Program-made: the position numbers and the translations under genes | The notes under the pieces: generated by a model | The model's database searches: none | What the model was told of the DNA's origin: nothing | What the model saw: the letters and a program-made list of their open reading frames with translations, nothing else | Assembly (NCBI GenBank): GCA_903831815.1 | Contig: CAIKZC010000001.1 | Location: 20,188-84,187 of the forward strand | Direction of reading: 5' to 3' | DNA length: 64,000 bases | Origin: an uncultured bacterium | GTDB lineage: Bacteria > Patescibacteriota > Minisyncoccia > Phycocordibacterales > UBA11359 | Shown here: in pieces, positions 5,733 to 42,565 of the stretch | Numbering within the stretch: position 1 is the stretch's first letter | How the letters are laid out: every line of letters begins with the position of its first letter

Positions 5733-6038
5733 CTAAGAATTACTGGCAATACTTGCGCGAACATCGATAAGTTTTTTCTGATCGTTCAACTCTTTGGTCA
5801 TTTTATCAATTTCCTTAATAGCAGACATGCCCTCTTTTTGCAATCGAACTTTTTGTTCGCCGGCTTCCACGTCAATATCGACGGCTTCCATAAAAAATTC
5901 GAACATTATTTTCTTTTTCAGGTCTTCCGGTAGTTCATTTATATGTTCGGACAAATACGCCCGAGCACCCTTCTCATCACCATTTTCGACAAATGCCATG
6001 AGAGTCTTATATAGTTCTGAGATTTTGTTGGTATCCAT
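5733..6038 (-). CDS. hypothetical protein
   Basis: 101-aa acidic ORF, no recognisable motif; tightly spaced downstream of the 374-aa ORF (possible operon). Confidence 0.4.
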   Translation of the reverse strand: MDTNKISELYKTLMAFVENGDEKGARAYLSEHINELPEDLKKKIMFEFFMEAVDIDVEAGEQKVRLQKEGMSAIKEIDKMTKELNDQKKLIDVRASIASNS

Positions 6039-6057
6039 TTTATTAATATTAATGAAA

Positions 6058-7182
6058 TTATTTTAAGCTAGCTTTTTTAGTATCAATAAAAGGATTGAAC
6101 AGATTTGCGAAGATAGCTCCCCAAAGTCCACGACCGGAATATTTTTTGCCATCCTTTTTCAAACCGTCGACAAATTCATCTCTGATACGATCTTTTTCAT
6201 CGTCGTCGAATTTATCCCAAGACTTATGTTTTTTGGAGACATTTTCCTGTATACATTCTTCCCACATTTGATCGACTTTTGGATCAGAAGGAAAAGTATT
6301 TTTCATATCTTTAAATCCTACCCTTTCCACTTTCAAAGATTCACCAAAAATCGCTTTTGATAAAGCTGCTGTCATATCATAATTACCCTTAATAGTTGCA
6401 CTCAATACTGAACCAATATTTTTTTTATGGTTTTCGAGCTCTGCAAGCCAAGCGCCAACTTCATTTTTTTTTGCTTCGAGCGTCTGAACATCTTTACCGG
6501 AACCGCTCCCTGCAAACATGGTATCAAAAAGTCTTCTATACCACCCCAAAAAACCATCTCCCCAAGATGCCCGAACCATTTCTGAAAAAGCTTCTTCACG
6601 TTTGGAATGATCTTTTATCAACATTGCTTGAGCATAAGCAGTTTCATCCCAACCGTTTTCATCGCACATTTTTTTAACCGAATCATCCAATTTTTTTCGA
6701 CTGTCTCCTTCGTCGCTTTGTTTTTGCTCGATAGCCTTTAAAAGTTTCTCAAAGCGTGTCGAATCACTTATCGCAAGTTCATTCAACCTCGAATCAACAA
6801 CATCCTTCATGTTATCCGCTGTAACTTTCCCAAGTAAGGCTTTAAATTCCTGATCATTTTTACCAAGATCGGTAATTAACTCCACAGTTAACTCTTTTTT
6901 AATAGTTTCAACCTGATCCATCTTTTTTTCAAATGCTACTCGTTGCTTTTCAAGACGATCGTGGTCTTCTTGACGGATCTCTGATTTGGCGATCTGATCA
7001 GCGAGCTGTTCGTCCTCTTCTTCCCCAGTATCAACAAGCATTTGAACAAACAAATCACTTTTTTCCTTGTCAGCTAAAATCTCCTTGACTGTCAAAGGTT
7101 CTTTTTCAACTATTCCAGCTTTCGCTTTTTCTTCCTTATCAATCCTCTCTTGCTCCCTTTGGTATGCTTCGGTTATTCCCAT
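6058..7182 (-). CDS. hypothetical K/E-rich coiled-coil protein
   Basis: 374-aa ORF with charged, heptad-like composition; no recognisable catalytic motif. Confidence 0.4.
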   Translation of the reverse strand: MGITEAYQREQERIDKEEKAKAGIVEKEPLTVKEILADKEKSDLFVQMLVDTGEEEDEQLADQIAKSEIRQEDHDRLEKQRVAFEKKMDQVETIKKELTVELITDLGKNDQEFKALLGKVTADNMKDVVDSRLNELAISDSTRFEKLLKAIEQKQSDEGDSRKKLDDSVKKMCDENGWDETAYAQAMLIKDHSKREEAFSEMVRASWGDGFLGWYRRLFDTMFAGSGSGKDVQTLEAKKNEVGAWLAELENHKKNIGSVLSATIKGNYDMTAALSKAIFGESLKVERVGFKDMKNTFPSDPKVDQMWEECIQENVSKKHKSWDKFDDDEKDRIRDEFVDGLKKDGKKYSGRGLWGAIFANLFNPFIDTKKASLK

Positions 7183-7401
7183 AGTATTAATTGATCCTAG
7201 TAATAAGATTTATACATATAATATTACTCCAAGACACGAATAATTACCATTGAGAAAAAATAAACTCTGCGGGCTGTTTGGTTCGAAGTTGGAACCTTTA
7301 TAAGCACAGTATACAACAAAAACACCCCTTTGTAGGAGTGTCTTTGTAAGCTTTTAAACAAGAGGAAATATGATCCACCGTCTTACGTATCGTTAGACTG
7401 A

Positions 7402-8109
7402 TTATCCTTGTGTTTGAGGGAGACACATAAACGACTCAAAAACCGGAGTTAAAGAAATGGTGGGTAGTACGGAACTGATTAAAAAGTTTGCAGACTCTTG
7501 CAAATCACCCTTCCCAGAAACCCTAACGGTCAATAAACTGGCACTATTTTTGCTTAATACGGTTGCTTGAAGCACAGGGTTTTTTACATCTGGATTAGAA
7601 CACTCTGTGCATGTTTTTGTACCCGCCACATGAGCAATATAACCATTGGTTAATGTGATTGTTTTATCTAGATCCGGTTTACCAAAACCATACGCAACAA
7701 TGTTATCTTTTGGATAACCCGGCCAACCACACTGTCTTGGGCTATACTGAACAGTAATTGAGTCTGTCTTTGCTTCAAAATTATTCATACCACCATCAAC
7801 AAAGTTCCTTTCCTTGATTACCTCAGGGCCTGCATATTTAAATCCAAATCCATATTGAGTATTTGTATACGTTTTCAAATTACTCATCTGGTTAGACGGC
7901 GTTGTGTTCGTCTTTACAACAGCTTGATTGGTCGGAGTGTTTTGAGTAGTTATAGGCTGAGTGTTTCCGGTCGTTGTCTGAGAACTATTTACTTGTTGTG
8001 TCGTCTGACCATTACTTTGTGAATAAATATAAATACCAAATGCTAACACCAATAAAACAATAATTATTGATAAAACCAACACTGCCGAACCTTTTTGTGT
8101 ATTTTTCAT
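7402..8109 (-). CDS. hypothetical membrane-anchored surface protein with Thr/Gln-rich linker
   Basis: 235 aa: N-terminal TM helix (AVLVLSIIIVLLVLAFGIYIY), a T/Q/N-rich low-complexity linker, then a Cys-containing globular domain. Confidence 0.4.
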   Translation of the reverse strand: MKNTQKGSAVLVLSIIIVLLVLAFGIYIYSQSNGQTTQQVNSSQTTTGNTQPITTQNTPTNQAVVKTNTTPSNQMSNLKTYTNTQYGFGFKYAGPEVIKERNFVDGGMNNFEAKTDSITVQYSPRQCGWPGYPKDNIVAYGFGKPDLDKTITLTNGYIAHVAGTKTCTECSNPDVKNPVLQATVLSKNSASLLTVRVSGKGDLQESANFLISSVLPTISLTPVFESFMCLPQTQG

Positions 8110-8206
8110 ATTGTGTTTAATGGTACAACATATTTTACAAAATGAACAGGTGCGTGGTGTAAATTGAATTTTTAAGGAAAACGAGTAGTATTACGTTCAT
8201 AATTTT

Positions 8207-9124
8207 ATGGATCTGCTTATCGCACAATTAGACCAAAAATACAAAGACTTCTTGCGTAATTTGAACTACAAAGAACCTGCCGATTCTGTAGCTTTTGGCC
8301 ATGCGTATGACTACTTTTGTATCATTGAAAAGCAACCTCGAATAAAAGAAATTATCGAAAACGATAGGAAGGAAATTGGATATAAAAAAGATGCTGTCGT
8401 ATTTAATCATCCTTCAATTGACGAGCAAAAAGACATAATGGACAGAATTGAGTGGAATTCCTTGTCTTTCTGCTATGACGAAATGTCGAGAGATATGTAT
8501 ATTCCTACTCTTAAATACAAAAATTCACTTGATGTACTTACACCGAAAGACATCATCGGCATAACTGAAATCCGCCGAGAAAAGTTTATAAGTTTCATGT
8601 TCTATCTCGTCAAAAAAGTAGGAAAATGGTTTGTAACCGATCGATCAGATTCCGACATTGATAATAGAATTGCTCTAGGCAAAATCGAATACAATTTCAA
8701 GCAAGAAAAATATCAGGTCTATATGAGTCGAATCCACTCAATTCTCATTCCTCAACTTTTAGAAATTCACACCAAGAAACCGATAGATGTGTCTGATCCG
8801 GAAGACCTAAACGGCATTTCTTTCGATAAAGAAAATAGCATTTTAAAAATCGGCGACAAAGAGGTAAAAATTACTTTGAAAAATGATAAAACAAACGGTC
8901 ATTATGTTCTCGAATATCTTTTTGAAAATGGCGTGGAAAATCCAGCCGATTATAAAGACATCATCATATCAAAATTCAAAGGCGACAGGAAAGATAACAT
9001 GTCCATTTATCGAGCTTGCAATGACATCAACAAAAAGGTTTCCAAACAAGCCGGTGTAGGTGAATTTTTGGATATTCACAGCGGAAAAACGGGCTGGGTT
9101 CAGATATATTCTAACTTTCTCTAA
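8207..9124 (+). CDS. hypothetical protein (element-borne)
   Basis: 305-aa ORF, no recognisable motifs; first gene of the plus-strand block. Confidence 0.45.
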   Translation: MDLLIAQLDQKYKDFLRNLNYKEPADSVAFGHAYDYFCIIEKQPRIKEIIENDRKEIGYKKDAVVFNHPSIDEQKDIMDRIEWNSLSFCYDEMSRDMYIPTLKYKNSLDVLTPKDIIGITEIRREKFISFMFYLVKKVGKWFVTDRSDSDIDNRIALGKIEYNFKQEKYQVYMSRIHSILIPQLLEIHTKKPIDVSDPEDLNGISFDKENSILKIGDKEVKITLKNDKTNGHYVLEYLFENGVENPADYKDIIISKFKGDRKDNMSIYRACNDINKKVSKQAGVGEFLDIHSGKTGWVQIYSNFL

Positions 9125-9194
9125 AGTTACCCGTAAAATACGGTAACGCTGAAAATATAAGATTGCCTCGCACAAACAAAGTGCGAGCTTTTGT

Positions 9195-9425
9195 ATGTCT
9201 ACATTTTCAAAACAACTGGTCGATAAATGTATCGAATATTTCAAACGTGTTCATCACACGGATATTTCCGTTGATACAGCCAACGAATACCTGCACTCCT
9301 TTGCCAAACTCTACCTAGCTTTCAATCGACCAAACGGCGGGGGCGGCGCCCGCTCCTTATGGGGCGGCGAGGCCCCGCCGGTGGGGGTGACTCCTAAAGT
9401 TATCCTAGGTGTTAGTAACACCTAG
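9195..9425 (+). CDS. hypothetical small protein (doubtful; 3' half lies in a GC-rich hairpin region)
   Basis: 76-aa ORF. The N-terminal 45 aa look protein-like; the C-terminal part (GGGGARSLWGGEAPPVGV) is encoded by GC-rich hairpins that are more likely a replication origin. Confidence 0.2.
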   Translation: MSTFSKQLVDKCIEYFKRVHHTDISVDTANEYLHSFAKLYLAFNRPNGGGGARSLWGGEAPPVGVTPKVILGVSNT

Positions 9426-9426
9426 G
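9335..9426. promoter_or_regulatory. GC-rich hairpin cluster plus perfect 23-bp palindrome CCTAGGTGTTAgTAACACCTAGG (9404-9426); candidate double-strand origin / recombinase site
   Basis: Seen directly: about 70% GC hairpins (GCGGG..CCCGC, CGGC..GCCG) followed by an 11-bp perfect inverted repeat with a 1-nt spacer, 20 bp upstream of the Rep_trans gene start. Confidence 0.35.
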
Positions 9427-9445
9427 ATACGTTGCAATATACAAC

Positions 9446-10498
9446 ATGATAGATACTGTTAAATTCTTAATACCCATGACTGATCAAACCATAATTGATC
9501 AACTTAAACATACCCTAAAACGCTTTAAAAAAGATGATATGAAAACTGGCGAAATAGAATTTGAGTTTTTTAGCAGTAACATCGAGCTTGGCTCATACCA
9601 CCGAACTGTGGCAATTAAATCAACAGAATTACCACTCGGATTTTTCATTGAATTCTCAGCTCCTAAATATTCTAAGGGTAACAATGTTGAAATGATATAT
9701 CCCCATGAACTGCCGGAAATAGTAGCGAAACTATACGATGAATTATGCACCCACATGAACTACAAGCTCCCTGACTTTAACCTCTGGCCTGTATATCGTT
9801 TAGACGTCTGCTACAACTGGCTTTTCAAAGATGAAAGTGAAGCTATGTATGCCATGAACTTTCTGCGCCGTATCGACTACCCCCGAAAAAAGAAACATAC
9901 CTACGACACATCCGTCATGTACCAAGGTTCTGCCTACACGGTCAAATTCTATTTAAAAGGTGCCGAGTTTAAAGTTAACGATTCCAAGAAAATCGAATTC
10001 AAGCGAGCGGTCAATCTACAATCATGGGCTAACCGGATTGTGCGGTTTGAAGTGAACCTAAAGAAAACATACCTACAACAGACATTTTTAGTGGACAAAG
10101 TATATTTACAAAATATTATTGATGATACTGTTATCGAACAAATCCTAAAATATTATTTAGAAGACAAAGTCTTTAAATATCTCAACATCAACTCCATGAC
10201 GGATGAAAATATCAAGCAAATTCTTTTTGAAAATTTCACTAAGACAAAATCCATGCGACTATATCAATTTTACAAGGGTTTCTTTTTTGATACCGAGATT
10301 AAAGATATGTTAATTTCCGGTGGTCTCAATCGCAGTACCATATACCGTTACAAAACTGATCTGAAGCGTGTCGGGGTTGGTATCTCACTTGAGAAACTAC
10401 CCGAAAGTAAGAATATTTTAGAGCAGTTAGTCATTCCATCCCCAAATTCACAATTTAATTTGATTGATTATGTTGATTATAAAATTTTAGAAGCATAA
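9446..10498 (+). CDS. rolling-circle replication initiator, Rep_trans (pT181 RepC-like) family
   Basis: 350 aa. Three blocks match pT181 RepC motifs: YRLDVCYNW (cf. TRLDLAFDF), YTVKFYLKG (cf. RFIRIYNK) and RIVRFEVNLKK (cf. WRVEIELKR). Confidence 0.55.
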   Translation: MIDTVKFLIPMTDQTIIDQLKHTLKRFKKDDMKTGEIEFEFFSSNIELGSYHRTVAIKSTELPLGFFIEFSAPKYSKGNNVEMIYPHELPEIVAKLYDELCTHMNYKLPDFNLWPVYRLDVCYNWLFKDESEAMYAMNFLRRIDYPRKKKHTYDTSVMYQGSAYTVKFYLKGAEFKVNDSKKIEFKRAVNLQSWANRIVRFEVNLKKTYLQQTFLVDKVYLQNIIDDTVIEQILKYYLEDKVFKYLNINSMTDENIKQILFENFTKTKSMRLYQFYKGFFFDTEIKDMLISGGLNRSTIYRYKTDLKRVGVGISLEKLPESKNILEQLVIPSPNSQFNLIDYVDYKILEA

Positions 10499-10508
10499 TA
10501 TAGCAACC

Positions 10509-11960
10509 ATGAAATACATTCTCTATTGCAGAAAATCAACCGAGTCGGAAGACAGACAGATTCTGTCACTTGATTCTCAAAAAGATGAGCTAACAAAGCT
10601 TGCTACCAATCAAGGTTTTCAAATCGTCAAAACCCTGCAAGAAAGCAAATCAGCTAAAGCACCCGGCAGACCTGTATTCAATGAAATGCTGAAACTAATC
10701 GAGACCGGAAAAGCTGACGCGATTCTGTGTTGGAAAATAGATCGCCTGGCTCGCAACCCAGTGGACGGCGGACAGATACAATGGCTGTTACAAAATAGCA
10801 AAATAAAATGTATTCAAACTTTTGAAAAATGCTACTATCCCAACGACAATGTTCTCCTCATGTCTATCGAACAAGCCATGGCTTCGCAATACATCAGAGA
10901 CTTAAGCACCAACGTCAAACGTGGCAACCGAGCCAAACTCGAAAAAGGTGTCTGGCCAAATCGTCCTCCATTCGGATATGACAATGACCGATTAAACAAA
11001 ACGATAATCGTTGATCAAGAAAATTCAAAATATCTCATTCGGGCTTTTGAACTCTACTCCACCGGCAGTTATGGTTTCAAAGAAATCGGCAACATACTAT
11101 ACAAAGAAGGACTACGAACAAAAACTGGCAAGAAATTCTTTTCTGGCAAAATACATAAATTTATAAGTAACCCATTTTACTATGGTGTCATGCGCATGGA
11201 CGGCAAACTATACAACGGCACTCATACGCCACTCATCTCAAAAGAGTTATTCGATCAAACTCAAGACGTGCTACACAACAGAAACAGACCACGACCTAAA
11301 AATCACTTCTTCCCACTTCGGGGATTTATGTCCTGTGAAGTCTGCGGCTGTTCATTAACCGCTTCGCTTAAAAAAGGTCATCACTATTACTACTGCACCA
11401 ACAGCAAAGGTGTCTGCACCGAACACAAAACCTACATGCGAGAGAGCAAACTATATCCTATCGTGGCTTCACTTTTTGAAAAGCTCAACCTGGATGAAGA
11501 AACTATTGAAATGATGTACCAAGCCGCTAAAGAGGAGACCGGCCACGCCACTGAATACTCAACCACCACTCTTTCTTCCCTTCAAAGTAACTTAAATGCC
11601 CTCACAGCAAAAGAAAGCAAACTACTTGATACTTTGCTCGCTGAACATATTACACAGGAGGTATACCACGACAAGGCTATTGAAATACAGAACGAGAAAG
11701 TCACACTAAAGAAACAAATCGCCGATCTTGAACTGAAAAGCAAAAACATTATTTCCACCTTGGAACCAACCAAAGAAATCTTTTTACGAGCAAGTAGAGC
11801 CAAAAAAGAGTTTATCGCCGGCGATGATTCAAAAAAGCGTGATATAGTAGAAACTATACTTTGGGACCTTTCGATGAAAGAACAGAAAATGGCTCAATAC
11901 AAGTTTAAAAGTCCGTATGCGAGCTTCCTAAAACTGCCTAAAAAAACCCGTCTTTTTTAG
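10509..11960 (+). CDS. large serine recombinase (resolvase/integrase)
   Basis: 483 aa. N-terminal catalytic domain with YCRKSTE (active Ser), central recombinase domain, Cys-rich zinc ribbon (CEVCGCS...YYYCTNSKGVC) and C-terminal coiled coil. Confidence 0.85.
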   Translation: MKYILYCRKSTESEDRQILSLDSQKDELTKLATNQGFQIVKTLQESKSAKAPGRPVFNEMLKLIETGKADAILCWKIDRLARNPVDGGQIQWLLQNSKIKCIQTFEKCYYPNDNVLLMSIEQAMASQYIRDLSTNVKRGNRAKLEKGVWPNRPPFGYDNDRLNKTIIVDQENSKYLIRAFELYSTGSYGFKEIGNILYKEGLRTKTGKKFFSGKIHKFISNPFYYGVMRMDGKLYNGTHTPLISKELFDQTQDVLHNRNRPRPKNHFFPLRGFMSCEVCGCSLTASLKKGHHYYYCTNSKGVCTEHKTYMRESKLYPIVASLFEKLNLDEETIEMMYQAAKEETGHATEYSTTTLSSLQSNLNALTAKESKLLDTLLAEHITQEVYHDKAIEIQNEKVTLKKQIADLELKSKNIISTLEPTKEIFLRASRAKKEFIAGDDSKKRDIVETILWDLSMKEQKMAQYKFKSPYASFLKLPKKTRLF

Positions 11961-11965
11961 AACTG

Positions 11966-12050
11966 CGGAGGGTAGGAGATTCGAACTCCTGAAGGGTTGC
12001 CCCTTACACGCTTTCCAAGCGTGCGTACTAGACCACTATACGAACCCTCC
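11966..12050 (-). tRNA. tRNA-Ser (anticodon GGA), long variable arm
   Basis: Minus-strand cloverleaf: acceptor GGAGGGT/ACCCTCC, anticodon stem CACGC/GCGTG with loop TTGGAAA, long variable arm, T-arm AGGAG-TTCGAAT-CTCCT, discriminator G. Confidence 0.85.
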
Positions 12051-12069: not shown

Positions 12070-12969
12070 CTATACGACATCTTTGCCGCCCAGCAAAATG
12101 CGAACACGATCTTCAACTGGTGGATGTGTGAAAAAAAGTCCGGAGACTTTTTTGCCTAGATTTCCAAAAGGATTGGCAATAAAAAGATGAGCCGTGGCCT
12201 GACTTGCATGTTGCATTTGCATGGAGTTATCGGAAATTTTTCGGAGAGCATTGGCCAAACCTTCGGGATAACGGGTCAATAATGCACCATCGGCATCAGC
12301 TAAATATTCGCGCTTTCGCGAAACGGCTAGTTGAATGATAGTCACGGCGATTGGCGACAAAATTGCCAACACCACGCCAATCAAGATTAAAATTCCATTC
12401 CCGCCTTCCCTATCATTTCCTCGACGAGCGCCACCAAACATCATTCCACGAAGAAAAATATGAGAAAGGATACTGACAAAACCGACGAGAACAATTACAA
12501 TAGTTGAGATGAGGATGTCGCGGTTACCGATGTGAGAAAGCTCGTGGGCAATGACGCCTTCGAGCTCGGTTTTATTCAAAATTTGCAAAAGTCCAGAGGT
12601 AACCGCGACCGCCGCATGCTCTTTATTTCGTCCAGTCGCAAAAGCATTCGGCGCGTTATCCGAAATAATATAAACACGAGGCATCGGCAATCCGGCCGTA
12701 ATCGACAAATTTTCGACTGTATTCCAAAGATCGGTATTTTGCTCACGAGTTATCGGCTGCGCCCGATACATCGACAGAACAATTTTGTCCGAAAACCAGT
12801 AACTAAAGAAATTCATGAACAAACTAAACACGACGGCAATGAACAAAATGCCGATATTGTCATAAATCATGGCGAAAACATATCCGATAGCGATGATTAC
12901 CACCAAAAAAGTGATCATCAACAACCATGTCTTCCAAACATTTTTTGATTGTTCGTGATAGATATCCAT
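12070..12969 (-). CDS. htpX: zinc metalloprotease HtpX
   Basis: 299 aa with HELSHI (HExxH) motif and multiple TM helices; M48 family layout. Confidence 0.85.
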   Translation of the reverse strand: MDIYHEQSKNVWKTWLLMITFLVVIIAIGYVFAMIYDNIGILFIAVVFSLFMNFFSYWFSDKIVLSMYRAQPITREQNTDLWNTVENLSITAGLPMPRVYIISDNAPNAFATGRNKEHAAVAVTSGLLQILNKTELEGVIAHELSHIGNRDILISTIVIVLVGFVSILSHIFLRGMMFGGARRGNDREGGNGILILIGVVLAILSPIAVTIIQLAVSRKREYLADADGALLTRYPEGLANALRKISDNSMQMQHASQATAHLFIANPFGNLGKKVSGLFFTHPPVEDRVRILLGGKDVV

Positions 12970-36499: not shown

Positions 36500-36503
36500 C
36501 ATT

Positions 36504-36574
36504 GCGGGTTCGTCTAATGGTAGGACATTGCCCTCTGGAGGCAAGTATTGGGGTTCGAGTCCCTGACCCGCAGC
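36504..36574 (+). tRNA. tRNA-Gln (anticodon CTG)
   Basis: Cloverleaf: acceptor TGCGGGT/ACCCGCA with the U1-A72 pair typical of tRNA-Gln, D arm GTC-TAATGGTAG-GAC, anticodon stem TTGCC/GGCAA with loop CTCTGGA, T-loop TTCGAGT. Confidence 0.75.
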
Positions 36575-42491: not shown

Positions 42492-42565
42492 TGGAGCCGA
42501 AGGTGGGAATCGAACCCACGTTCCCGCTTTACGAAAGCGGTGTTCTGCCACTGAACTATCTCGGC
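42492..42565 (-). tRNA. tRNA-Thr (anticodon CGT), CCA encoded
   Basis: Cloverleaf: GCCGAGA acceptor (one A-C mismatch at 7-66), D arm GTTC-AGTGGCA-GAAC, anticodon stem CCGCT/AGCGG with loop TTCGTAA, T arm GTGGG-TTCGATT-CCCAC, 3' CCA. Confidence 0.75.

Follow-up and report, generated by a model that had tools for sequence, protein, structure and literature searches.

A probable 4.7-kb integrative rolling-circle replicon with a gpII-type initiator and a large serine recombinase at tRNA-Ser(GGA) in a Patescibacteria chromosome

The window analyzed here is a 64,000-nucleotide stretch of DNA from an uncultured bacterium of the Patescibacteria (GenBank assembly GCA_903831815.1, contig CAIKZC010000001.1, positions 20,188 to 84,187 of the forward strand). 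Positions 7273 to 11968 (approximate) of this window probably constitute a 4.7-kb integrative rolling-circle replicon inserted into a Patescibacteria chromosome, where it occupies the extreme 3’ end of tRNA-Ser(GGA). With the gene p235 included, the element is 4,696 base pairs in length. The integrative rolling-circle replicon is an already known kind of element. What is new is the combination of a gene II protein (gpII)-type initiator (Rep), a large serine recombinase (Int), the occupation of many tRNA 3’ ends, and a host from the candidate phyla radiation (CPR). An earlier note made from the sequence of the window had suggested an integrated plasmid-like rolling-circle element, a suggestion that is supported here; comparison with other loci extends this guess from one locus to a defined family of elements. 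The genes of the locus are listed below; the coordinates of the four plus-strand genes are from the list of open reading frames (ORFs).

7402-8109, minus strand: p235, a probable cargo gene left of the four plus-strand genes
8207-9124, plus strand: p305, 305 amino acids
9195-9425, plus strand: p76, 76 amino acids
9446-10498, plus strand: Rep, 350 amino acids
10509-11960, plus strand: Int, 483 amino acids
11965/6-12050, minus strand: tRNA-Ser(GGA), intact, the integration target (ARAGORN, Rfam)
12070-12969, minus strand: HtpX (M48/HtpX peptidase), the right-hand neighbor

The ORF list confirms that the four plus-strand genes lie between minus-strand neighbors, with p235 on the left and HtpX on the right. 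Also confirmed is the placement of the 483-amino-acid recombinase, with a gap of 5 nucleotides between the Int stop codon and the 3’ end of tRNA-Ser(GGA). The tRNA matches Rfam RF00005 over its full length (11966-12050, 53.8 bits) and is the sole Rfam match between positions 6900 and 12200.

Rep matches Pfam PF05144 (Phage_CRI) with an E-value of 1.2e-18 and 68.1 bits (cut-off 21.7), TIGR01629 (rep_II_X) with 35.2 bits (cut-off 29), and phrog_702 “replication protein” with an E-value of 6.9e-27. The earlier note had assigned Rep to the Rep_trans family, Pfam PF02486. This profile gave no match to Rep even at E≤10, which is, technically, the outcome that the note itself had named as speaking against its assignment. 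Rep does contain the three motifs that it had quoted, and a 30-sequence Rep alignment shows no variation at their key residues (R118/D120, Y169/K171/E174, and R200/E202). The invariant stretches R118-L-D120, Y169-L-K171-G-A-E174, and I-V-R200-F-E202 correspond to Rep_trans motifs I, III, and IV, while motif II is approximate only (S156-V-M-Y-Q-G161). The Rep_trans motif set is RxD, T/SxYxG, YxKxxE, and W/LxRxE (PMC5714925), and it is common to Phage_CRI (PMC4797284, PMC5714925). Because the set is present in both families, the motifs do not tell the two apart.

The AlphaFold model of Rep has a mean predicted local distance difference test score (pLDDT) of 90 and a predicted template modeling score (pTM) of 0.85. 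In a fold search of the PDB, the only significant matches to this model are the Rep_trans structures RepDE (4cwe, 4cwc) and RepSTK1 (4cij), with E-values of 1.6e-7 to 1.1e-4, a probability of 1.00, and target-normalized template modeling (TM) scores of 0.41-0.54. Identity in these structural alignments is 11-14%. Sequence searches of the PDB with Rep, as a single sequence and as a profile, returned nothing meaningful; the fold search alone succeeded. Together with the shared motif set, the fold matches make the motif observation of the earlier note right at the superfamily level, while the family is PF05144/TIGR01629 instead of the one it had named. Rep is a gpII-type initiator of the Phage_CRI/rep_II_X family, sister to Rep_trans, with a catalytic fold like the crescent-shaped one of Rep_trans. 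Its C-terminus is a helical domain resembling a helix-turn-helix (HTH). Initiators of this family nick their cognate origin site-specifically and form a covalent tyrosine-DNA intermediate; from the YxKxxE context, the catalytic tyrosine of Rep is likely Y169.

A Rep with 30% identity is encoded on a free 3.5-kb plasmid of the cyanobacterium Rivularia PCC 7116, which PLSDB classes as non-mobilizable. Among 50,697 phage records, only two relatives of Rep were found, both in complete Inoviridae genomes carrying Zot and G5P, and Rep is 22-25% identical to these inovirus Reps. Exact-sequence look-ups for Rep and for Int returned nothing.

Large serine recombinases have a resolvase catalytic domain followed by Recombinase and zinc-ribbon domains, and are about 450-700 amino acids long. 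Int is a large serine recombinase by this triad of domains. As the earlier note had expected, all three Pfam profiles match: PF00239 (residues 4-149, 1.1e-23), PF07508 (residues 172-257, 4.4e-15), and PF13408 (residues 269-319, 1.8e-5). Int also matches the phrog_95 integrase with an E-value of 1.4e-79, and scores under the cut-offs of the XisF and CcrA/B/C equivalogs. The catalytic serine is likely S10, judged from the N-terminal YCRKST context.

The region between p305 and Rep is strongly structured. The fold of positions 9120-9450 has a z-score of −7.5 relative to dinucleotide shuffles, none of which (n=100) was as good. Three features were located in it.

9335-9380, plus strand: GC-rich hairpin of 18 base pairs, a candidate single-strand origin or other origin structure
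9401-9429, plus strand: conserved palindrome TATCCTAGGTGTTA-G-TAACACCTAGGATA, a candidate double-strand origin and Rep nick site
9431-9445, plus strand: small palindrome GTTGCAATATACAAC directly before the Rep start codon, a candidate Rep-binding or translational control site

The conserved palindrome has 14-nucleotide arms about one central base. It is thus real and longer than the 23-mer of the earlier note, which corresponds to 9404-9426. Its center, (T)AGTAACACC, is invariant across the family, and the outer stem is variable. In loci whose Rep start matches that of the window, the palindrome sits 16-21 nucleotides upstream of the Rep ATG. In a 15-sequence alignment, 7 of the 11 stem pairs show changes on both sides. 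The covariation score is 0.319, compared with 0.145 in shuffles (none of 500 reached the observed value) and at most 0.084 when the partners are slid. This covariation indicates that selection maintains the dyad symmetry, either as a hairpin or cruciform or as a symmetric binding site. With a conserved position and compensatory changes family-wide, the palindrome is a very good candidate for the origin, the role the earlier note had given it. A search in phage relatives did not find the palindrome or origin motif in the two inovirus genomes examined. The small palindrome before Rep has the family consensus ACGTTGCAAnnTGCAACATG, also written ACGTTGCAAnnTGCAAC; this second helix is 88% paired and shows little covariation. 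At the position of the GC-rich hairpin, most family members have a GC-rich hairpin of unrelated sequence.

The ends of the element were placed by comparison with related elements, and are as follows.

7267-7320, plus strand: attL, composed of the core CTGCGG (7267-7272) and then the element-side arm GCTGTTTGGTTCGAAGTTGGAACCTTTATAAGCACAGTATACAACAAA
11940-11990, plus strand: attR, composed of the last Int codons (...TTTTTTAGAACT), the core CTGCGG (11963-11968), and the tRNA-Ser acceptor and T-arm

The CTGCGG core is made up of the last two bases of the acceptor stem, the discriminator, and three trailer bases. After this 6-nucleotide core, which is common to the tRNA end, a conserved att arm, TGGTTCGAAGTTGGAAC, is found at 7279-7295. 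The left site of the window reads CTGCGG followed by GCTGTTTGGTTCGAAGTTGGAAC, while the tRNA junction reads AGAACTGCGG followed by AGGGTAGGAGATTCGAACTCC. In most loci, the sequence ...TTT(c)AGAACT adjoins the tRNA end. In sequence, the element-side arm is similar to the acceptor and T-arm of a tRNA (GGTTCGAA). Large serine recombinases act on short attP and attB sites with a small common core, and so leave very short direct repeats at the ends of the element. The 6-nucleotide core in the window agrees with this expectation.

The closest relative element (locus L015) lies in a different genome at tRNA-Val, and its Int is 78% identical to that of the window. The two share a collinear core (window 8816-11992). 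A non-coding block of 50 nucleotides at window 7271-7320 is 90% identical to L015 6617-6666, and the L015 site opens with GTGGGCGGT, which is the end of that locus’s own tRNA-Val. A core of 6 nucleotides with a 2-nucleotide register shift was found only through this comparison. The arm motif TGGTWCGAAGTTGGAAC has one occurrence in the window, where 0.02 are expected by chance. The arm, TGGT(A/T)CGAAGTTGGAAC, lies upstream of Rep in all 13 loci with enough sequence. In each of these 13, the bases preceding the arm match the first 4-9 nucleotides of the end of the locus’s own tRNA; the shared core spans 4-13 nucleotides. When core and tRNA pairings were permuted, the mean number of matching loci was 3.3, and the observed 13 was reached in none of 100,000 permutations. 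In locus L017, one copy of the core and arm comes directly after the stop codon of another recombinase, an attP-like P-core-P’ junction. Direct repeats of the tRNA end, 16-19 nucleotides in length, flank L022, L027, and L030.

The comparison with L015 and the arm and core data together place attL at 7267-7320 and attR at approximately 11963-11968, with p235 inside the element. The earlier note had set the limits at 8110 and 12050. That interval covers the four genes and misses the probable left end, near 7270, by approximately 840 nucleotides, and with it the minus-strand p235.

Four loci carry an additional structured segment of approximately 170 nucleotides. In L022 (2042-2250), L030 (7828-8046), and L027 (657-838), it lies between the 16-19-nucleotide copy of the tRNA 3’ end and the arm; in L017 (12495-12700), it is found between a copy of the tRNA end and the tRNA itself. 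The segments of L022 and L030 are homologous to each other, and each is closed by the two strands of an acceptor-like stem. A segment of this kind may represent a miniature element or else the remnant of a tRNA-like sequence.

At E<1e-97, Rep has more than 120 homologues. Many lie on long contigs from Patescibacteria, the longest measuring 577 kb, and all listed homologues but one (P0084) match PF05144. A scan for Rep in one genome per species gave 22 loci, all in Patescibacteria metagenome-assembled genomes. The order p76, origin, Rep, Int, and antisense tRNA is present in about 18 of these 22 loci, and the distance from the Int stop codon to the tRNA 3’ end is 8-20 nucleotides in most loci. 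The tRNAs targeted include Val(cac), Val(gac), Gly(ccc), Lys(ttt), Gln(ctg), Trp(cca), Ser(tga), Ser(gga), Ser(cga), Ile(gat), and Leu(tag). The related elements are 3.9-6.8 kb in length and are mostly filled by the conserved module and unrelated cargo. This cargo includes an EcoRI-type methylase and a GmrSD/HNH nuclease (L027), an Mrr/ResIII helicase-nuclease (L118), a trypsin-like protease (L016), and surface-anchored proteins. Virion, conjugation, coupling-protein, and secretion genes were found neither in the window element nor in the scanned or listed cargo of related elements. A full-text literature search found no published description of this Patescibacteria element family.

Two further tRNA genes in the window, tRNA-Gln(CTG) at 36503-36574 and tRNA-Thr(CGT) at 42492-42565, are of types that are targets or target neighbors in L019, L024, L027, and L034. 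Neither of the two carries a copy of Rep or Int, and the att arm motif is likewise absent there. In L016, the sequence beside Int (12482-12560) has a tRNA-Gln-type 3’ end (GCTGGGGGTCTGGGACTCGA...), yet no tRNA is called there by ARAGORN. One possibility is a tRNA gene that is interrupted or degenerate; in Patescibacteria, tRNA genes with group I introns have been reported (PMC13011429).

p76 was found by a profile hidden Markov model immediately upstream of Rep in 19 of 25 loci. It matches no family in the libraries searched (Pfam, PHROG, NCBIfam). Its N-terminal segment of approximately 42 residues is conserved (FSxxLIxxxIxCFKEE...ANEYLxSLAGLFLAF). The G/P/A-rich tail is encoded by the GC-rich hairpin and the C-terminal LGVSNT by the palindrome. 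A reading of p76 as merely a translated hairpin was considered and rejected, given that 19 loci conserve its first 42 residues. For the tail, the constraint is probably the DNA structure rather than the protein. p76 is a small core protein and, from its position, a candidate directionality factor or regulator. Of the earlier label for it and p305, cargo or regulator, the cargo part does not hold for p76, a core gene in 19 of 25 loci.

p305 has homologues at the same position in 9 of 25 loci, and has no Pfam, PHROG, or NCBIfam family. Its AlphaFold model (pLDDT 79) predicts a novel all-helical N-terminal domain (approximately residues 1-190) followed by a C-terminal winged helix of the OmpR/PhoB type. 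In Foldseek, the C-terminal 100 residues or so match the DNA-binding domains of PhoB, CovR, AdeR, and SaeR with TM scores of 0.65-0.73, a root-mean-square deviation of approximately 3 Å, and a probability of approximately 1. p305 is, on this model, a DNA-binding winged-helix protein and a candidate regulator, recombination accessory, or directionality factor.

p235 lies between attL and the conserved module. It has an N-terminal transmembrane segment (MKNTQKGSAVLVLSIIIVLLVLAFGIYIY) and a Thr/Gln/Asn-rich linker, as in a membrane-anchored or secreted protein, and shows no Pfam match over the cut-off, no NCBIfam match, and no known domain. The same N-terminal anchor is present on genes in att-bounded segments of L015 (491 amino acids) and L016 (280 amino acids). 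p235 is probably cargo.

Base composition shows no contrast between the four-gene block and its surroundings. A promoter scan was uninformative, with 18 sites compared with 14.2 expected. One terminator-like site was located downstream of p305 by terminator scan and folding, and is a consensus match only; shuffled sequence yields at least as many such sites in total as the region does.

9167-9187, plus strand: terminator-like hairpin followed by CTTTTGT

Left of the element, p101 and p374 (window 5733-7182; also in L119-L124) form a conserved gene pair without known domains. In three related contigs, the pair directly follows a group of two or three genes for T4SS_pilin (PF18895), and in one other contig it precedes a type IV pilus operon (PilM, T2SSE, T2SSF, and prepilin peptidase).

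Some related loci contain more than one att-like site, while the window contains a single one. In L016, ten same-strand sites made up of core and arm (TGGTACGAAGTTGGAAC) lie between 1104 and 6646, 360-1400 nucleotides apart. Each segment between them holds one or two small ORFs in mixed orientation. Two or three sites are present in L017 (2010, 2724, 6224), L015 (5041, 6625), L019 (6191, 6701), and L022 (2234, 2782). The arrays lie upstream of the Rep-Int module. They could be explained equally well by tandem accretion followed by loss of Rep and Int, as in the ssrA islands of Dehalococcoides (PMC3146451), or by integron-like cassette mobility. A bolder proposal, which is tentative and which we consider rather unlikely to hold, joins these arrays to the choice of target. 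A half-site formed by the T-arm (GGTTCGAA) together with a few core bases would make the Ints reprogrammable across tRNAs, and the same Int and site pair would build integron-like arrays of single-gene cassettes, each flanked by core and TGGTACGAAGTTGGAAC, with up to 10 cassettes per locus. If true, this would be a serine-recombinase analogue of the integron in CPR bacteria.

The surroundings of the target were compared in 80 loci with an HtpX relative (58-85% identical). The order LemA, HtpX, and tRNA-Ser(GGA) is conserved in these loci, and none of them has the Rep/Int pair of the window after the tRNA. The earlier note had held that the same four genes in conserved synteny in all relatives would argue for a long-fixed chromosomal region. 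Instead, dozens of relatives have LemA-HtpX-tRNA-Ser without Rep and Int, and the module is found at other tRNAs elsewhere. A different antisense serine recombinase, 30-34% identical to Int, is present approximately 200 nucleotides past tRNA-Ser(GGA) in three of the more distant relatives: L045 (4966-5853), L061 (6843-8162), and L082 (7308-8537). L067 and L077 each have, just downstream, a short second copy of the tRNA 3’ end. The 80 loci without Rep and Int, three of them with another recombinase, indicate that the site is ancestrally empty, and tRNA-Ser(GGA) appears to be a recurrent integration hot spot.

Several results weigh against the reading as an integrative replicon, or against its mobility at present. 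For this lineage, neither an empty site, the comparison called for in the earlier note, nor a circular form was obtained. The 14 near-identical metagenome contigs (99.3-100% identical) are all collinear with the window; look-ups with HtpX, p235, and p305 gave collinear contigs only, and hence no empty site. Homologues of the left-flank gene p374, sought for the same purpose, were only distant (30-43% identical) and in unrelated contexts. Terminal repeats, a sign of circularity, were not found in short contigs. The closest possibly empty relative is L037, with an HtpX that is 85% identical, and its contig ends 26 nucleotides past the tRNA. Its trailer, AGTTCGTATTTTTT, has only a modest likeness to the left flank of the window, AGAGTTTATTTTTT, and so supports the left boundary modestly. 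A scan of the window with 30-mers for a duplicate of the tRNA end gave a best score of 17/30, compared with a null maximum of 19. Since the direct repeat in the window is just 6 nucleotides, the left boundary rests on the comparison with other elements. In L022, L027, and L030, the long repeat lies approximately 150-190 nucleotides outside the arm, and this makes a simple model of attL harder to apply. Beyond AACnGC-GG-GCnGTT, there is little dyad symmetry between the P and P’ arms. IMG/VR was scanned with the Rep profile and the att arm motif, and neither returned a relative. Finally, in a population variant (L003, with the split genes seen in a second sample too), a 1-nucleotide deletion at 11370 splits Int into 334 and 148 amino acids, and thus some copies may be decaying. 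The same variant has 30 single-nucleotide polymorphisms clustered in 145 nucleotides of the Rep gene (window 10058-10201), which suggests recombination with a second Rep allele along with local decay of Int.

Three other explanations of the locus were weighed. It is unlikely that the element is a defective or satellite filamentous (inovirus-like) prophage whose virion genes are lost or supplied by a helper. Such a prophage would account for the gpII-family Rep, for the two Inoviridae genomes as its only relatives among phage records, and for structured origin hairpins directly upstream of the initiator gene, as in the Ff phages. The phiRSM inoviruses also integrate at the 3’ 13 base pairs of tRNA-Ser by means of a serine recombinase (PMC4471427). 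However, the approximately 25 elements examined contain no Zot/pI ATPase, no G5P-like protein, and no run of small coat-protein genes, all of which the true inovirus relatives have. Their identifiable cargo is restriction/methylase genes, protease, and surface proteins rather than virion genes. Their small size, mostly taken up by the conserved module and unrelated cargo, the lack of an IMG/VR match, and the low identity of Rep to inovirus Reps also argue against a satellite prophage.

Quite improbable, too, is an integrative mobilizable element (IME) in which Rep acts mainly as a relaxase nicking the palindrome as an origin of transfer (oriT), with type IV secretion or a pilus provided by a helper, as with MobT/Rep_trans relaxases. 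The element has no transfer genes of its own, and in Tn916, ICEBs1, and many streptococcal IMEs, proteins with the Rep_trans fold work as relaxases and also initiate replication (PMC5704250). The neighboring chromosomal p374/p101 pair adjoins T4SS_pilin genes in three related contigs, but that association occurs in other genomes and outside the element. No coupling protein or type IV secretion genes are present in or beside any element, and the free plasmid with a related Rep is classed as non-mobilizable. The relaxase reading is compatible with that of an integrative replicon, as one protein could do both jobs. Highly improbable is a fixed, immobile remnant whose four genes are now ordinary chromosomal genes of the lineage. 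Such a remnant would fit the presence of the insertion in the same place in every near-identical contig, from at least six samples, and the variant with the Int frameshift. In the window, however, all ORFs are intact, and the att arm, origin palindrome, and catalytic motifs are conserved. More than 10 different tRNAs are occupied across genomes, which makes mobility evolutionarily recent at the family level. Several assemblies of near-identical contigs also break near the element edges, a weak hint of heterogeneity.

As an integrative rolling-circle replicon, the element would have the following cycle. Int would recombine the attP of the circular element with the tRNA end, attB. The attP would run from the Int 3’ end through the core into the arm TGGTTCGAAGTTGGAAC, with the junction ...CCCGTCTTTTTTAGAACTGCGG joined to GCTGTTTGGTTCGAAGTTGGAACC..., and the attB junction would be ...GAGAAAAAATAAACTCTGCGG joined to AGGGTAGGAGATTCGAACTCC.... 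The crossover would occur inside the shared CTGCGG, so that the tRNA stays intact. Int may read the near-universal T-loop sequence as one half-site, in attB and attP alike; in that case, a switch of the family to another tRNA would require only a few base changes in the core. After excision, Rep would nick the conserved palindrome (TAGTAACACC) upstream of its own gene, probably through Y169, and start rolling-circle replication. The adjacent GC-rich hairpin may be the single-strand origin. Excision by large serine recombinases depends on a recombination directionality factor; p76, p305, or both may have this role or be regulators, and p235 would be passenger cargo. Transfer between cells appears not to be self-encoded and would need DNA uptake or a helper.

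Several known systems share part of this arrangement. Phages of the phiRSM1 and phiRSM3 type, integrative filamentous Inoviridae of Ralstonia, likewise are small rolling-circle replicons with their own serine recombinase, use a tRNA-Ser 3’ end, and have attP beside the recombinase gene (PMC4471427, PMC10975378). Their enzyme is a small one of the resolvase/invertase type, whereas Int is a large serine recombinase of approximately 480 amino acids with Recombinase and zinc-ribbon domains. The phiRSM Rep is described as HUH-type (PMC10975378), whereas Rep here is Phage_CRI with a Rep_trans fold. The phiRSM phages have a full virion module and betaproteobacterial hosts; the elements described here have no virion module and are hosted by Patescibacteria.

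With the gene II protein of the Ff phages (M13/f1/fd), Rep shares the PF05144 and TIGR01629 matches above cut-off and the structured hairpins directly upstream of the initiator. In Ff, the nick site lies within a hairpin of the intergenic region that precedes gene II, and the minus-strand origin hairpins are adjacent. Unlike in Ff, Rep has a distinct C-terminal HTH-like domain, and gene X, gene V, and a morphogenesis module are all missing from the elements. No origin sequence is shared between the elements and the two inovirus relatives examined. With the pT181-family proteins RepC, RepD/RepDE, and RepSTK1 (PF02486), Rep shares the fold, the motif set, and a hairpin or palindrome origin near rep. 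It differs in lacking the PF02486 match, and pT181 plasmids are non-integrative and do not carry such a recombinase.

The Dehalococcoides ssrA islands also have a large serine recombinase (DsiB) at the 3’ end of a tRNA-like gene that is left active (PMC3146451). They share direct repeats of the target end and tandem “accretion”, including units without an integration module (PMC3146451). These islands are much larger, have two serine recombinases (DsiA, DsiB) and no rolling-circle Rep or origin, and use ssrA as their single target. The streptococcal IMEs are small integrated elements with a site-specific integrase, a rolling-circle initiator (Rep_trans, Rep_2, and others), and no transfer apparatus (PMC5704250). 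There, tyrosine integrases act at gene or tRNA 3’ ends, whereas the IMEs with serine recombinases disrupt genes from inside (PMC5704250). Rep family and host phylum also differ between these IMEs and the elements here.

The family thus consists of compact elements of approximately 4-7 kb with a core of p76, an origin, a gpII-type Rep, and a large serine recombinase, for which candidate att sequences and a candidate nick site are now available. Patescibacteria, or CPR bacteria, have tiny genomes and are mostly uncultured. To our knowledge, their mobile elements are poorly catalogued, genetic tools for them are currently lacking, and their mechanisms of gene exchange are largely unknown. The element is a candidate replicon-plus-integration toolkit for these bacteria. 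Its related serine integrases, with predictable and differing tRNA attB sites, would be useful for understanding how new specificities evolve. The cargo of restriction/methylase systems and surface proteins, together with the multi-site arrays, suggests a route by which the reduced genomes of CPR bacteria may gain accessory genes.

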